Below are positions 18,520 to 46,449 of a stretch of 64,000 nucleotides of DNA, piece by piece. Below the pieces are notes generated by a model. The model ran no database searches and was not told the origin of the DNA. It was given only the letters and a program-made list of their open reading frames with translations. Source of the DNA: Rhizaria sp. SCN 62-66 (Eukaryota); assembly GCA_001724265.1 (NCBI GenBank), contig MEDY01000285.1, positions 1 to 64,000 of the forward strand, written 5' to 3'. Every line of letters begins with the position of its first letter. The first letter of the stretch is position 1. A program made the position numbers and the translations under genes.

Positions 18520-21500
18520 TCACCAGCCGCCGTATCCACCCGAACCGTAACCGCCGTAGTTGTTGTAGCTGGTTCCGGTGCTATAGCTCGCTCCATCACC
18601 CAGAAAGCGGAACTGTCCTGCAAACGCTGGCACCGGATAGGAAGCAAACGAAGCGGCATACGCGTCATCGTAGAAGTTCGAGATCCAGCCGAAGCCGAGA
18701 CTGCCGCTGCCGTAGCCGTACCCGCTGCCAGCGCCGTAACCCGTGCCGGCCCCTGTGCCGTAGCTGTTAACGCCGCCGTAGTTTCCGTAGCTGCCGCTGC
18801 TGTAGCCACTGTAGCCGCTGCCGCCGTAGCCGCCGCTATTGTATGCGGCTGTTCCAAACCGCCTTGCCGTAGCGCCCGCAGCGGCGTCGGCCCTCAAGGC
18901 GCGCATGCGGGCCCTCTTCGCCGCCGCAATTGCAAACGGCGTGACCATTCCTGAGTAAATCCTGTCCTCGAGCCCTGTATACCCACTATATGGCCGTCCG
19001 TAAACGCCACCGCTTGAGGGGGACTCGGCCTGGAACGAGCCCAGCGCGGGGGCCAAAACGGCGCTGCGCTGCGCAGTCTGCTGCGGGGCCTGCATGAACC
19101 CGCGCAGCTCGTTCGCAAATGCGGGGTTAAACCCACTGCCGAGCTCGCCGCTGCCGTGGAGCCCGTCTGCAAAGAGCACGCCGTTGTAGCCGGCGCCATA
19201 CTCGCGCGGTCCGCCCGTGCCGCGGCTGCGTGTGCCGTCGAAGAAGCCGAGGTCAAGCCCCGCGGGCGTGCCGCGCGAGCCTGGCGAGGGGTCAACCTGC
19301 ACGGCTGGAAGCGGTGTTGTGGAGGGCGCTGGAGCTGTTGTTGTTGCTGCTGCTGTCGTCGTTGACGGTGTCGCTGCTGTCGGTGCTGGGGGAGACGCAG
19401 CTGCCGCGGAGGCGCTGTTTGCGCTTGCCGGTGCAGGTGCAGTCGCCGGCGCAGCTGAAGTCGCAGGCGCATGAGCCTGTGTGGACTCAGGCGCTGTTGC
19501 AGGCGCAGCTTCAGGCGCCGCCTCGGATGCAGCATGTGCTGCTGAGGTAACGGAATGCGATGTTCCTTGCTCTGGCGTTGCCGGCATAGCTGCCGCCGTT
19601 GCTGCTGACGTTGTTGCTGACGCAGTGATGTCGTCAGCTGAGGACTGTGCCGGCAGCGTACGCTGTGGGTGTGAGGCGGGCGCGGCGGCTGTGCCTGACG
19701 GCGCAGACGCTTGAGTGGGCTCCGGTGCAACGGGTGCAAGGCGCGGCAACCCAGCAGCGGTTGGGGGTACAGTAGGCGCAACAGCCTAAACGGGGGGCGG
19801 CGCCGGTACTGCCACATGTGGTGTTGGCGAGACTGTTGCAGGGACAACAGTGGGTGTTGTTGCAGTTGTCGCTTGAGCGAGGACTGGCGGGGGAACTACT
19901 GGTGTTGCAACAGGTCCAGGAACAGCTTGCGATGTGGAGGTGACTACGGCTTCCGGCGCAGTCACCGGAGCAGCCTGTGGCGCCGCAACTGGAGCCGCAT
20001 GCAGTGTTGGCGGCGTGACCGGGACAGCATTTGGCGCCACGACATTAGCCGCCGGAGCGACCTGGGGCGCCGCGACCGGAGCTACAGACGGTGTCGGCGG
20101 TGCCATTAGTGTTGGTACAGCCGCAGGCTGTGGGGTGGGTGCAGGCAATGTTGGCGGTGCAACAGGAGAAGCAGTAGGTGATGATGCGAGAGCTGCAGCC
20201 AAGCCTGTCACAGGAGAAACAGGGACGGCAGCAGGCGCGAGCGCAGGCGTGAGCGGCGGCGGAGTAGTGAGGTCGCCGTGAGCACCCGGCAGCAGTGGCA
20301 GCACCTCTACCGGCGTTGCAAGCGTTTCAAAGCTGCGCTCCGTTGCAACACTTGCAGGGTTGGTTGCCACTGCAGGAATGACATCGATTGGCCGACCAAT
20401 CAGCGTTAGCAGAGCTGATACCAATGTGCTTGTTGCCGCTCTGTCTTGAGTCGTGTTTTCCAAAGGCACAGTGCCTGATGCAGCCAGCGCTGCAAGACCC
20501 GCGTCAATCTTGAGCGGCTGCGGAGCCGCTAATTTTACTGTTGTTGTCGGTGTTGCTGCGAGTACTGCCGGTGCAGCTACTGGTGTTGCGTCAGGTTTGG
20601 CGGCAGCGTCTGCAAGCGCAGGAATCGGCGCATGCGCGTGCGTGCGCTCATCAAAGTCTCCACTCCCCATTGTTATGACAGTACGGTGTTCTCCGGCTTC
20701 TGGTGCAAGAAGGATACCATCTGTGACAAGTGAGGCGACGGCGACGGGGTACGTAGCCAGCTCAGCAAGCAGCAGGTCAAGCGGAGACTCGACCACTGGT
20801 GTCGGTATTGTCATCCCTGCGTTGTGGGGGCTCGCGTTTTTGTCACGGCCGCCATTGCCGCCTCCAGTGTTTGCGCTGCTGTGGCCGTTGGGCTGCGTTT
20901 GTGGGAGGGCGAAAGGACTCAAACTGCGACCAATGCCTTGAAGACTCTGTTGCTGTTGTTGCTGTTGTACAACTTGTTGTTGAACAGGTTTTTGCGTGCC
21001 ACTGTCACTATAGGCCGGCGCACTGTAACTGGGCGCGGTGTATGTTGGGTAGTCATACGTTGGCGCTGAGTAGTAGTTCAACACCGGCCCCGTTGACTTG
21101 CTGGGGCCTGGCAACGACTGGTACGCGTGATCGCCGCCGTTGTTGTAGTTGTTATAGTTGTTGTAGCTATTGCCGTTGCCGTAGCCGTCCAAGCCGTACT
21201 GCGAGAAAATTGCGTCGCCCCACTCGACGCCGAATGACAGCCCGCCGCCGTTGGACGTCATCGGGTACGCACTGAATGCAGGCAGCTTAGCGGAACCGTA
21301 AGTTCCCAGACCTCCAGAGTATGACGGAGGTGTGGCGTACACCTGAGGCGGCGGCGTCGCATAAGCGGGCGCATACGGCTGCTGGTAGCTGTAGCCGGAG
21401 GACTGGTAGGGACTCGACTGGTACTGCAGAGTCCGGGCTGCACGGCCGTCACGGTGCAGGGCATAGGGGGAGTATCCGCTGTAAGAGGGCAGCGATGGAG

Positions 21501-21723
21501 GTGGGATGTAGATGGGGTCCGCGGTGGGCGCATAGTCGTAGGCGTATGCGCGGTCAGGCAGGTAGTACGGCGGAATGTAGGTTCCCGCGCCGCCAACAAG
21601 ATTGTAGCCGTAGTAGCCGCCGACATAGCGCGGATAACCCGCCTGGAGCTGCGGCTGCAGGAAAGCCTTGACAGCAAGGGCTGAAGCGAGTATGAAGGCG
21701 CTGATATGCCTTACATACCGCAT
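18520..21723 (-). CDS. Putative secreted structural protein (~1,067 aa): signal peptide, Tyr/Gly/Pro-rich ends, Pro/Ala/Thr/Val-rich core; one in-frame TAG at 19788-19786
   Basis: MRYVRHISAFILASALAVKA is signal-peptide-like. ORFs 19786..21837 and 18520..19749 are in the same frame, separated only by TAG (PAPPPV*AVAPTVPP). TGA stop. Confidence 0.75.
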
Positions 21724-22127
21724 TTCATGCTCTGCATGTAAGTGTGAGAGGACATGTATAAATAATAATGAGATTAAGGTGTATAGCATTGAGGCAAGCG
21801 GACTATTCGTCGAAATCATAGCACCGTTATTTCTCACTTCGGGTCAGACTTAAAGTTTTCAAGTCAGCTTCAGCAAGTCGAAAATTGGTCAGCTTCAAGT
21901 TGATTTTAAAGTTGAACATGAAGTTGTCAAGATATTTATCAAAATATACAGCGGGTTTTATTCAAAAGAAACCGTTCATCACGCGTACTTTGTTTTGACC
22001 GTGCATATAAAACTGGTCTAAGCCTAGCAAGCAAAATAGAAACACTTTAAAAAAAAAACAAGAGTCAACACGCGTCGATCGGCGAGTACAAAAACAGAAA
22101 GTAGATTCCAGCATCCGTATTATTATC

Positions 22128-27840: not shown

Positions 27841-30800
27841 TCAAGCAGCGTCATCATCGTCATCATCGCCCATCACAACGCCTCCATCATCCTCCTCCTC
27901 CCCCTCCAGAACCTCCTCGAGCCCCTCATGTTCCTGATCTTGCTCCTGCTGCTCTGCGGCCTACTCCTCATCGTCCTCATCTGTAGTCTCTGCATTAGTG
28001 AGATGAGTCACTAGGGCAGCGAAGAACAGCGGCAAGCGCGCGGGGGCGCCCGTCGCGGCGTCGGGCGCGGCCAACGCCTGTAGTGCGGGCGGCAGCAAGG
28101 CCACGAACCCGTCCATACGCACTGCGGGCGCGGGGCCAGACGTGTCCACGACGACCTTGTACGCGCAGTCATCCCTAAACAAGAAGTTAGGAATAAATAT
28201 GAAAGTGAGATGAAATTAATATTGAAATATATAGAGATATGCGATCATATAGAGCTGTTTCACTGTTATTTTGACGTACTTGAACTTAAAGGTGACGCGG
28301 CGCTTGGCCTCGTTGACCTCGACTGAGAGCCCCAAAAGCTCCGTGATGCGACTCTGCGCGTTGTCCCACCGCTCCTTGACGTACTTCATCAGGCGCTCGA
28401 GCTCGCCACGCGCCGTCGCCGCCTCCGTGCGCGCCTCATCCGCGGCCGCAATGGCCTCGGCAGCCTGCGCGCGCGCCGACTCAGCGTCGGCCGCGAGGGA
28501 CGCCACGCGCGCGGCCACTGCGGCGGCCACGACGGCGGGATCGGGCCGGTCCGCGCCCGCCGCGGCGGCCTTGCCCCCGTGCAGCCCCAGCACGCTGCGC
28601 GCAACGGGGTCTGCGAGGTCCGCGAAATCCGTGTTGGCCTGCGCCTGCGCCTCGGAACTCATCAACCCGAACGAGTTGTCCTCCTCAGCGCCCGCCGCCG
28701 CAGCACTGCTAGCGCCCACTCCGGCCGGAGCGTCGGCGGCGACCTCGGCCAGGCGCGCGACGGAAGCGCGCAGCGCCGCAAGTTCGGCGGCAGCGGCCTC
28801 GCGGCGGAAAACCTCGAGGTGCTGTCGCATCCCGAAGCACTTGGTGCCACGCGTAAACTCGTCGTCTTCCTCCTGGTCCTCGCCATCTTGCTCGGCAGCA
28901 CCTCCAGTAACGGTGCCCGCCTTGGAGGCCGTGGCAGCGCGGAGCTTCGCGGCGAGGTCGTCTCGCGCGGCCTGCGCCTCTGCGGCCGCGGCGCGCAGAC
29001 CGGCACTCTCCTCTGCCGCGGCCGCCAGCCGCTGAGTGGCGCGCGTAGCCTCCGCGCGCTCTGCAGCGAGCTCAGCCTCGAGCTGCGCGATGCGGCCCTC
29101 GTGCGCGCGCAGAGCGTTGCCCGCTGTGGCGGCGTCAGGGGCCGCTGTCGCTGTGGCCGCAGCCGCTGCAGCAGCGCCGGGGCGTCTGCGAGTGCCCGCA
29201 ACGGTCTGCTCCTCCTCGTCGAGGTACGTCTGCAAAAGCCGCTGCAACGAGGCGTTGGCGTCTGTGAGCACCTCCTTGCGCCCGCTCTCGGCCGCCGCGC
29301 GCGCCTCAGCAGCGGCCGCCGCGCGCCGCGCCTCACGCGCCTCGTCTTCAGCCTCTGCAGCGCGCGCCCCGGCCGCGCTGAGGTCGGCCACCGCAGCGGC
29401 CAACTGGCGGCGCGCACTGGCCGCGGACGCCCGCTCGCGGCGGAGTGCGACTGTCATGCGCTGCAGCAGGAGAGCCAGGTCGTCCGGCGTCGCTGCCTCC
29501 CCGTCGCCGTCGCCCGCATCGTCGTCCGCGTCGTCGTCATCGCCATTGGCGGCGGCGGCGTGCTTGCAGTGGGCGGACCCGTCGCCCGTGAAGGTGATCA
29601 CCGCCGCCGCAGTGCGCGCGCGCGCCTTACCCTTGGCAGGGGTCACGGCGGGCGTGCCGGCGGGGGTCCCGGCCGCGCTGCCCGCGACTGGCGCCCGCAG
29701 CGCGGCCTCGGCGGCGACACGGCCCTGCGCAAGCGCGGTGCTCCACTCACGCGCTGCGGTCTGCAGCGCGGAGACGTCAACGCGCAAGCGGGCGGCGTCG
29801 TCGGCCTCGGACCGCAGTGAATGGGCCTCGCGCTCCAGGGCGATCATGCGCTCGTCGACGGCGCGCGCGCCCACGTCGCGGCGCCGCGCCGACGCCAGGG
29901 AGTCTTCGGCGCGGGCCAGGCGCGCGCGCAGCACGGCGGCCTCGCGCTGCAGCGTCAGCACGTCACCAGCGTTACCGCTAGCGTCGGCACCTTCACCAGC
30001 ACCGCCATCACCAGAGGTGGAGGATGAGGATGAGGATGAGCCTGTGTCGGCGCCGCTGCCGGAGCGGGCGGCGAGGACACCGGAGACGGCGAAGCGCAGG
30101 CGCGCTTCGCGCTTCAGCTTATCAACCTCGAGCTAAAAATCGAGATGTAAAACAACGAGAAATATCAGTGATGTGTAAGAAAAAAATTTGCTTCCTGATA
30201 CCAATGAAATCCTTAAAAATCCATCGTTTCACATCATGCGTGCAAATATTTCCGTACCCGTGCGGCCTCAGTCTCTGCGGACAGACGGTCCTGCGTGGTC
30301 AGCAGCTGCTCGACCTGTGTCATCGCCGCAGCCGTCATGCTCTCCGCCGAGGCCAGTCGCGCGCGCAGCTCAGCCGTCACGTCCACCGCGCCCGCACTCG
30401 CGCCCGCGCCGCAAGTCACACCGACGCCGGCGCCAGTGCCAGAGCCGGAGCCAGAGGAGGCGGAGGCGAGAGTGAGTGCAGCGCGCGCGGTGGCGCTGAC
30501 GTCGCGGCGCGCGGAGGCGACTTCGCTGTAGGCGGCCGCGAGCTCTGCCTGGAGGCTCGCAATGAGTCTGTGATTGTGAAAACAGTGCAGAAACAACATC
30601 ACAAAACAAATGTGAAACGGTGTGAGAGAGATCATGTTCATTTTCATTGACAAGTTCGAATCCTTGGATACAGATACAATAAAGACTCAGCTAGATCTAC
30701 GACTGACGTACTTGACTTGCTCGTTGGGTGCCCTGCGCGCCTCCCTAGCCTCGTCCAACAACCGCGCAATAACGGCTTGCAGAGCCTCAACCTTGGTCGC

Positions 30801-45028: not shown

Positions 45029-46449
45029 ATGTCTGACGTGACGGGAACGTTCACGGACGACCAGTCGGGAACGGGCTTCACCCGCTCCCGTGGCTCGCGC
45101 GGCGAGGACATCACGCGCGGCCCTCTCTCGCAGTCCCATTCAATGGGGGACATGTCCCACAACCACATTGGACTCGAACTGTCCGAAGGTCCTACGCGTT
45201 TCACCTTCCGCTTCGACGCCGACTATCTGGAACGGTCCGTCTCTGATCAGTCTCTTTGTAGCTCCTTCATGCCCCCTTTGTCTGATCTCCTTGCAACTCT
45301 CTTCTGTGCCCCGCGCTGACCCTTCATTCATCATGTTCGCTTTTTTCGCGTTTGCCCCCGCATTACAGTGTGATCGAGGCCTGGGGCGCGCACGTGCGCG
45401 GTACCACTGTCGCAAACGAAGCCACTCTGGCAGCCATTCTGCGCGAGCTTGGCTTCAACCCGACTTACTCCGAGATCGAAGAGTACCTCCAGGCCTACGA
45501 CCGCCACGGCGACGCCACCAGCGTCAACTTCTCCTCCCTGTGCGACATCATCAAAACCTTCATGCAGGACAATCCCGTGAGCGTGTTCGAAGCGCAACTC
45601 ATCAATGCATTCCGCGTTTTCGACGATGAATCCGAAGGCTACGTCGGCACGCACGTCATCGACCGTGCACTCCACCAGCTGCCCTGCATCTCCAAGATGA
45701 CCGAGATCCGCGAGCTGATGTCAGAGCTTGACCGCGAAGGTGAAGGCTACATCTCCTATGAATACTTCGTCTCCTCCCTGTGCTCCAACTTCGCCAAGGG
45801 CCTCGCAATGGCGCCCGCGCCGCAGACTCTTAAGTACACCAAGTACGAGGTCCGCGACACGCTCGACGGGCTGATCGACAACGGCCCGCGCGACGATGGC
45901 GCGGACCCCGAGGCCGGCGCTGGCGTGATCGAGCGCCGCGAGCGCGTGTTGAAATAGCACGCCGCGCGCGAGGCCGCGGCAGCGGAGCTGCGCGCGCAGG
46001 GCAAGGCGGGCAAGAAAAAACTCAAGAAGAAGGCCAAGAACGCTGCTGCTGGTGCGAATACTGCGAAGAAGGACTCTGCGGCGGCGGTGGATGGAAGTGG
46101 GTCGTCGCTGAGCCGGTCCAACTCGGCGTCTCTGTCAGCGAACGCGCCGCTCGCGCCTGGCGGGCTGGAGGGGTCGAGCTCCAGTGCGAGCGCCCGGGGC
46201 GGCCGCCGCAGCAGCGACGATCTGGGCATGGGCATGGGACTGGGGCTCACGGCGGCGCAGCGCGGGGGCGCGAGCGTGGTCGACGGGCTCGCTTTTGACG
46301 ATGATGACGGCGGTAATGAGGATGAGGACGAGGATGCGCTGGCGGAGGCACAGCTGGGACTGGGCACGCAGGCGAAACAACAGCAGCAACAGCAGCGGCG
46401 CAAGGACGAGGACGAGGGTGAGGACGAGCTTGCGGGTATCCAGCGTTGA
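45029..46449 (+). CDS. Calmodulin/centrin-like EF-hand protein with Lys-rich and acidic tail; intron 45235-45368; in-frame TAG at 45955-45957
   Basis: LRELGFNPTYSEI, LINAFRVFDDESEGYV, ELMSELDREGEGYISYEYFV. The frame continues past TAG (RVLK*HAAREAAAAELRAQGKAGKKK...) to TGA at 46449. Confidence 0.8.

Follow-up and report, generated by a model that had tools for sequence, protein, structure and literature searches.

Probable reassignment of UAG to glutamate, with UAA and UGA kept as stops, in the nuclear code of a probable cercozoan protist

In the nuclear code of the protist described here, UAG has probably changed from a stop to a glutamate codon, and UAA and UGA remain stops. One codon of this kind is an in-frame TAG at codon 646 of a gene in the window, i.e., the whole 64-kb stretch of DNA that was analysed, which corresponds to contig C285. 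At the DNA level, the proposal is founded on a tRNA gene, on counts of internal and terminal triplets and on substitutions in the release factor eRF1, from which the charging of the tRNA, the specificity of the release factor and the order of events are inferred.

The in-frame TAG and the protein that contains it

The minus-strand letters CCC GTT TAG GCT GTT GCG CCT, cited in a sequence-only reading of this DNA, were recovered on rereading and place the TAG at 19786-19788. Upstream of it, the minus-strand frame is open over 19786..21843 (685 amino acids from stop to stop), and downstream the 421 open codons reported earlier were counted again, up to a TGA at 18520-18522 (minus strand), which is presumably the true stop. 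If the TAG encodes a residue, translation gives a single open frame at 18520..21723 (minus strand) for a low-complexity, probably secreted protein of 1067 residues, the ATG at 21723 being used as the start; another in-frame ATG lies at 21817-21819. The codon itself is documented by the sequence and by contigs of other runs, and its probable meaning, Glu, by the tRNA and the alignment columns presented below. Base shuffling of the stretch downstream of the TAG never produced 421 open codons (0/2000), which is a weak test because frame +1 of this GC-rich, low-complexity DNA also contains only one stop.

The start of the protein, residues 1-20 (21664..21723, minus strand), resembles a signal peptide, as judged by eye. 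On the basis of composition, it is followed on the same strand by an N-terminal block rich in Tyr, Gly, Pro and Ser (residues 26-245, 20989..21648), a mucin-like stalk rich in Pro, Ala and Thr with a low GC3 of 0.41-0.49 (residues 311-815, 19279..20793) and a C-terminal block rich in Gly, Tyr and Ser with a GC3 of 0.74 (residues 966-1067, 18523..18828). The two ends had been described as alike, and their composition agrees with this, as Gly and Tyr account for 30% and 17% of residues 966-1067, and Tyr, Gly and Pro for 17%, 13% and 13% of residues 26-245. The Pfam search of the 1067-residue protein returned no family, and among 7,997 candidates of 586-1868 residues no homolog was found beyond the protein's own database entry, which ends at the TAG and is present on 7 contigs.

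Two further in-frame TAGs are present in the window. One, placed by the gene finder and its flanks, lies at 27961..27963 (minus strand) within an acidic stretch of the final exon of a coiled-coil gene. The other, placed by the gene finder and Pfam, lies at 45955..45957 (plus strand), past the EF-hands of an open frame at 45286-46449. The coiled-coil gene (28216-30132 and 27844-28215, minus strand) is MAD1-like by eye and has no Pfam match.

Verification of the site

The TAG at 19786-19788 is real and is not a splice site. Contigs of 4 of 18 runs, namely X3, X4, X5 and X8, were compared with the locus. A contig of run X3 covers 18811-19893 with 0 differences, the TAG included, and a contig of run X4, which represents a different strain from another study, covers 19718-19929 and keeps the TAG, with 1 difference at 19758, 28 bases from it. 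The codon is thus TAG, not CAG, in contigs from two other studies, and these two contigs rule out an assembly error, even at the low depth (4.4-5.7) of the contigs across the TAG. Downstream of the TAG, X4 and the polyA run X8 share an insertion of 12 bases behind 19503 and a deletion of 9 bases at 19681, both in frame, and upstream X4 has an in-frame deletion of 6 bases at 20246. Such indels offer modest support only, because indels that arise by slippage in repeats tend to come in multiples of three. A dN/dS comparison was uninformative, with only 9 substitutions, 2 synonymous and 2 non-synonymous downstream and 1 and 4 upstream, respectively. Run X8 has contigs on either side of the TAG, one of them (18634-18891) in the C-terminal block, and none across it; an RNA contig across 19786-19788 was found neither in this run nor in X5, and neither run covers the site.

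As an intron acceptor, TTTAG scores 3.5, which ranks it at about the 25th percentile of the 289 introns predicted. Within 600 nt, no in-frame donor exceeds a score of 2.5, and no branch-point motif was found. The earlier statement that the site has no intron-like stretch was therefore upheld when an in-frame GT donor, a branch point and an AT-rich body were sought, and a mini-intron or longer intron finishing at the TAG was dropped for want of a donor. The intron 21084-19296 proposed by the gene finder was likewise dropped, since an RNA-library contig crosses 19254-19713 without a splice and the indels in this stretch preserve the frame.

Distribution of TAG, TAA and TGA in genes

The three triplets were counted in 923 kb, a non-random sample of contig stretches and search-picked loci that makes up 2.6% of the 34.9-Mb assembly (714 contigs). 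The home-made gene finder assigned an equal cost to the three stops inside genes and an equal chance to each as gene end; it mis-modelled the gene of the TAG protein itself. It placed 23 TAG, 3 TAA and 3 TGA inside genes, against 7 TAG, 91 TAA and 70 TGA at 168 gene ends (Fisher p 1e-18), and a simpler test of flank scores gave 14, 2 and 2 internal triplets, respectively. Strong gene ends comprised 51 TAA, 35 TGA and a single TAG, past which the frame runs on as polyQ. One of the other six TAG ends runs on as an acidic stretch, and five are weakly scored. No convincing TAG gene end is present in the 923 kb. This scarcity is not compositional, since TAG makes up 22% of the stop triplets behind gene ends. 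TAA is not reassigned, being the commonest gene end (91/168), and its 3 internal calls are weak. Inside genes, TAG occurs in approximately 1 in 8,000 codons, which is a lower bound because the finder missed the TAG at 19786-19788.

Some features of the genes were recorded alongside. G follows TAA in 40 of the 51 strong ends and TGA in 17 of the 35. The 39 training introns have the donor consensus GTACGT and a length of approximately 110-230 bases. Genes are sparsely interrupted by introns, and their very long exons contain inserts rich in Ala, Gln and Asn. A VPS13-like gene (L092) carries two in-frame TAGs (G000:C1:142686 and 146331). Two TAGs also occur in a low-GC frame (L284, 1-2091; G000:C681), which may be part of a mobile element and encodes an unknown domain present in duplicate, a ubiquitin domain and, as its tail, a Peptidase_S74 intramolecular chaperone.

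Fifteen family searches were made for in-frame stops; two Ras matches with a single TGA, one kinesin match with two TGAs and most multi-stop matches were not fetched. Among the matches fetched, 9 TAGs were clearly exonic and no exonic TAA or TGA was verified. Exonic TAGs lie within the conserved coding sequence of eRF1, SUV3, UBP14 and 5 kinases. No exonic TAG was found among the matches to AAA (22), AAA_6 (18), kinesin (51), ABC (20), myosin (6), DEAD (43), Ras (39), SNF2 (22) and metallophosphoesterase (22). The TAG matches L138, L139, L144 (a domain match), L285, L287-L291, L296 and L312 and those in dyneins turned out to be intron acceptors or intronic, and the single TAA matches L145 and L297 to be intronic; L143, in which the TAG is ambiguous, was left out. 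A kinase-motif pattern was dropped, as it gave 214 matches and its control 251.

The CUA tRNA and eRF1

Among the 44 matches of a pattern search, one has the fold of a tRNA and a CUA anticodon (C84:76008-76080, minus strand). This single-copy gene reaches 58 bits with the Rfam tRNA model, has a T-run on its 3' side and lies among long GC-rich reading frames; its anticodon stem is weak. In the comparison with 24 anticodon types, Glu(CUC) ranked highest, with 47 of 73 positions identical, followed by His and Glu(UUC) (40 each), Asp (39), Tyr (37) and Leu (36), and the Gln tRNAs reached 33 and 29. The CUA tRNA has the same first five acceptor pairs as the two Glu tRNAs, an acceptor stem different from that of the Gln tRNAs, and a G73 that also occurs in Glu(UUC) and Asp. 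The similarity suggests that this putative suppressor derives from tRNA-Glu and would be expressed and charged as such. A UUA tRNA was not found among 9 pattern matches restricted to short variable loops, of which 7 are no tRNA, 1 is a tRNA-Lys and 1 lies in a scanned tRNA-free stretch. The tRNA inventory is incomplete because the family search scored only 63 of 506 tRNA candidates.

The searches turned up a single eRF1 gene and a single pelota-like gene. The eRF1 gene terminates with TAA and has an in-frame TAG in its N-domain (G000:C63:103463-103465, minus strand; L071, L093), which falls on human Glu107 in a gap-free alignment. Given the rate of TAG inside genes, a gene of 435 codons would contain one by chance in approximately 5% of cases. 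A second assembly, possibly from the same source DNA, is identical across 1,626 bases that include this TAG. The protein carries the substitutions T32S, M34V, G57S and T58K (human numbering) at positions where Thr, Met, Gly and Thr are invariant in 75-76 homologs, and keeps Glu55, Leu69, Ser70, NIKS and YxCxxxF. In Iotanema, the change T32G has been linked to a lost hydrogen bond to the G of UAG, in the accessible text of PMC5304391 and PMC9161772, and T32A is given as lethal in yeast in that of PMC4381064. Ser32 may therefore weaken the reading of UAG by this eRF1, although the loss of UAG reading is uncertain because Ser32 retains the hydroxyl.

Identity of the inserted residue

Three alignment columns are deep, namely those of eRF1, UBP14 and SUV3. 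In eRF1, the column of the TAG contains Glu in 78 and Lys in 1 of 79 metagenome homologs, and Gln in none. In UBP14 (TAG at C108:27979-27981, plus strand), it contains Glu 76, Asp 10 and Gln 3 times in 141 sequences, and the two closest homologs both have Glu. In SUV3 (TAG at C129:47071-47073, minus strand), Asp prevails (98 of 119, with Asn 7, Glu 4 and Gln 1), and an ortholog with 77% identity also has Asp. Among the kinases, the two closest paralogs of L142 have Asp at the site, the column of L136 contains Glu 9, Ala 8 and Gln 1 in 28 paralogs, with Tyr or Lys in CaMK1 structures, and the sites of L140 and L141 are uninformative on the residue. Two shallow sites indicate Gln: the TAG of a NEK-like kinase aligns to a Gln of human NEK1 (one sequence), and a diverged ubiquitin-like domain has TAG where the genome's own ubiquitin has CAG. 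The kinases L141, L142 and L143 are paralogs of one lineage-specific family, each with a TAG at a different position.

Low-complexity regions hold 4 TAGs in polyQ (1928 codons, 1,039 of them CAG) and 3 in acidic context (229 GAG), and the rates per parent codon do not differ significantly (p 0.12). In polyQ, TAG (4) is less frequent than the non-synonymous CAG neighbours CGG (16), AAG (16) and GAG (19) and far less frequent than the synonymous CAA (337). This rarity fits tolerated C-to-T changes of CAG to TAG better than synonymy, the contrast between polyQ and acidic context being non-significant. The Gln-containing motifs around codon 646, which had been put forward as an argument for Gln, are indeed present in the translation; however, so are the Glu motifs TAPEAV, VAPEPT, APEAAP and TAPEST, and residues 501-815 contain 11 Gln and 6 Glu. 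Since Glu occurs in the same repeats as Gln, the local repeat context does not discriminate between the two, and Gln as deduced from it was dropped. Taken together, the columns and the Glu-type tRNA make Glu the best reading, with Gln and Asp as minor rivals.

Affiliation of the host

The runs that hold the gene come from wastewater, sludge and bioreactors. Intron-bearing genes for RPB2, SMC3, IFT88 and a DEAD-box helicase were recognised by eye in the window, and the presence of IFT88 together with several dynein heavy chains suggests a flagellate. Within the searched length range, full-coverage database proteins reach at most 55% identity to RPB2 (50% for Lotharella, the best named protist), and in a quick tree RPB2 forms a long branch (1.43) on the Lotharella/Paulinella side (SH-aLRT 92). 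The ubiquitins start with Met-Ser-Met, and no polyubiquitin junction was recovered. The host lineage is probably, though not firmly, Cercozoa (Rhizaria). Rosculus vilicus was excluded as host, being described in the accessible text of PMC10770858 with 37.7% GC and without flagella.

Several other loci were noted. The 18S rRNA gene (L074, G000:C706:4459-8903) is 4.4 kb long and so highly divergent that it did not serve for taxonomic placement, with several group I intron-like insertions, one of which has an open frame like a His-Cys homing endonuclease (by eye), and with spacer tandem repeats. The ubiquitin genes L282 (G000:C3:10811-14026), L283, L294 and L295 include several single units ending in Gly-Gly-His-Pro-Gln and two adjoining copies with internal deletions. 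The metagenome proteins P0005, P0126, P0248 and P0249, with 41-77% identity to the RPB2, SUV3 and UBP14 of this protist, point towards uncultured species related to it.

Discussion

The observations are best accounted for by the following sequence of events. A copy of tRNA-Glu would have acquired a CUA anticodon and would be charged by GluRS. Such an anticodon reads UAG, and reading of UAA is not expected, as stated in the accessible text of PMC11687900. The altered eRF1, changed around the GTS and TASNIKS motifs, would read UAG poorly, so that the tRNA would outcompete it at this codon. Gene ends would then have abandoned UAG, and GAG and CAG codons would have given rise to UAG inside genes at positions that tolerate Glu. 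If UAG means Glu genome-wide, the TAG at codon 646 needs no special role or mechanism. The 1067-residue product would be a secreted structural protein with Glu at 646, and a coat, wall or adhesive role can be guessed. It recalls Tyr/Gly-rich and mucin-like secreted wall or coat proteins in its signal-like start, Tyr/Gly-rich ends and Pro/Ala/Thr stalk; however, this likeness is compositional only, as the protein has neither a sequence homolog nor a Pfam match.

The sequence-only reading had regarded UAG as Gln. Its first half, UAG as a sense codon, is supported by the internal and terminal counts, the CUA tRNA and the TAG in eRF1, whereas Gln is not. A genome-wide change to Gln of the Iotanema spirale type would agree with the CAG replaced in the ubiquitin-like domain, with the NEK1 site, with the 4 TAGs among the 1928 polyQ-context codons and with Gln being the commonest outcome of such reassignments in the accessible text of PMC11687900. 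Nevertheless, it is improbable, given the near absence of Gln from the three deep columns (0/79, 3/141 and 1/119), the low identity and different acceptor stem of the CUA tRNA relative to the Gln tRNAs and the scarcity of TAG within polyQ. Another acidic or a mixed product, chiefly Asp, would suit the SUV3 column with its close ortholog, the paralogs of kinase L142, the G73 of the tRNA and its 39/73 identity to tRNA-Asp. This reading is very improbable, because the eRF1 and UBP14 columns point to Glu, both Glu tRNAs have the same acceptor stem as the CUA tRNA, G73 is also found in Glu(UUC), and TAG is one change from GAG and two from GAC or GAT.

It is also improbable, to a degree comparable with Gln, that UAG is ambiguous, with partial termination by eRF1 and partial suppression giving forms of 645 and 1067 residues, although such a state would be compatible with inserted Glu. 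The rarity of TAG, its occurrence mostly in linkers and low-complexity regions, the many conserved families without an exonic TAG, the single CUA tRNA gene and the conservative nature of T32S would all be in line with ambiguity. On the other hand, no convincing TAG gene end exists, TAGs are tolerated even though truncation of the eRF1, SUV3, UBP14 and kinase domains that contain them would abolish function, and GC pressure with one tRNA copy would equally yield the rarity. Under the standard code, the TAG would be a fixed nonsense allele, a site of gene-specific readthrough or an intron end. The acceptor score of TTTAG is compatible with the last of these, the RNA cover downstream of the TAG would also fit a 3'UTR, and the protein has no homologs; however, donor and branch point are missing, both downstream indels keep the frame, and the eRF1 TAG, the CUA tRNA and the genome-wide counts would be left unexplained. 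The standard code is therefore hardly tenable here, and the recent nonsense allele and regulated readthrough offered earlier as alternatives are unlikely for these last three reasons.

Bacterial RF2 is a self-regulating release-factor gene and can serve as a model for feedback. By analogy, the new UAG=Glu code might be combined with a loop in which eRF1 retains residual affinity for UAG and, when in excess, truncates its own product at the UAG in its N-domain; this addition is speculative and rather unlikely.

UAA and UAG nearly always shift their meanings together. No code that reads UAG as Glu and retains UAA as a stop turned up in the open-access literature, as far as its accessible text goes, and an earlier mention is possible in subscription journals or supplements. 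UAG=Glu alone, with UAA and UGA as stops, is probably a nuclear code so far undescribed, and its single suppressor tRNA and rare codon may mark a reassignment still in its beginnings. In Oligohymenophorea sp. PL0344, UAG is likewise Glu and the CUA tRNAs are nearest to tRNA-Glu (69-93% there, 64% here); however, that ciliate reads UAA as Lys, has UGA as its sole stop and possesses 10 CUA tRNA genes (accessible text of PMC10553269), whereas the present protist has UAA as its commonest stop, one CUA tRNA, a GC-rich genome and no ciliate signs. Peritrichs and Blastocrithidia share a CUA tRNA derived from tRNA-Glu and UAG=Glu, but in both UAA also means Glu, and Blastocrithidia has a UUA tRNA and an AT-rich genome (accessible text of PMC11687900 and PMC12153298); the present protist has kept UAA as a stop, and the search for a UUA tRNA was negative. 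Codes in which only UAG has changed are given for the rhizarian exLh (Leu), Iotanema spirale (Gln), phyllopharyngean ciliates (Leu or Gln), Protocruzia tuzeti (Gln) and Scotinosphaera (Ser) in the accessible text of PMC5304391, PMC9161772 and PMC11687900. They resemble the present code in having UAA and UGA as stops and differ from it in that none, as described there, uses Glu. The eRF1 of Iotanema carries T32G in the GTS motif, the same residue as T32S here, whereas that of exLh carries L69A at a position where Leu69 is kept here (PMC5304391, PMC9161772, in their accessible text). UAG is found in 78-91% of the genes of the ciliates among these, according to the accessible text of PMC11687900, as against approximately 1 in 8,000 codons in this protist.

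Summarizing, if the proposal is true, the code table would gain a row in which UAG means Glu and UAA is the main stop. Database proteins of this protist have already been cut at TAG (P0002, P0129 and P0246). With approximately 63% GC, the genome in its present state leaves no room for AT pressure, which has been put forward as the driving force in Blastocrithidia. A second independent change of eRF1 Thr32 in a UAG-only code would make the proposed role of this residue directly testable, and the combination of one tRNA gene with a codon used approximately once in 8,000 may picture a young or stalled reassignment.
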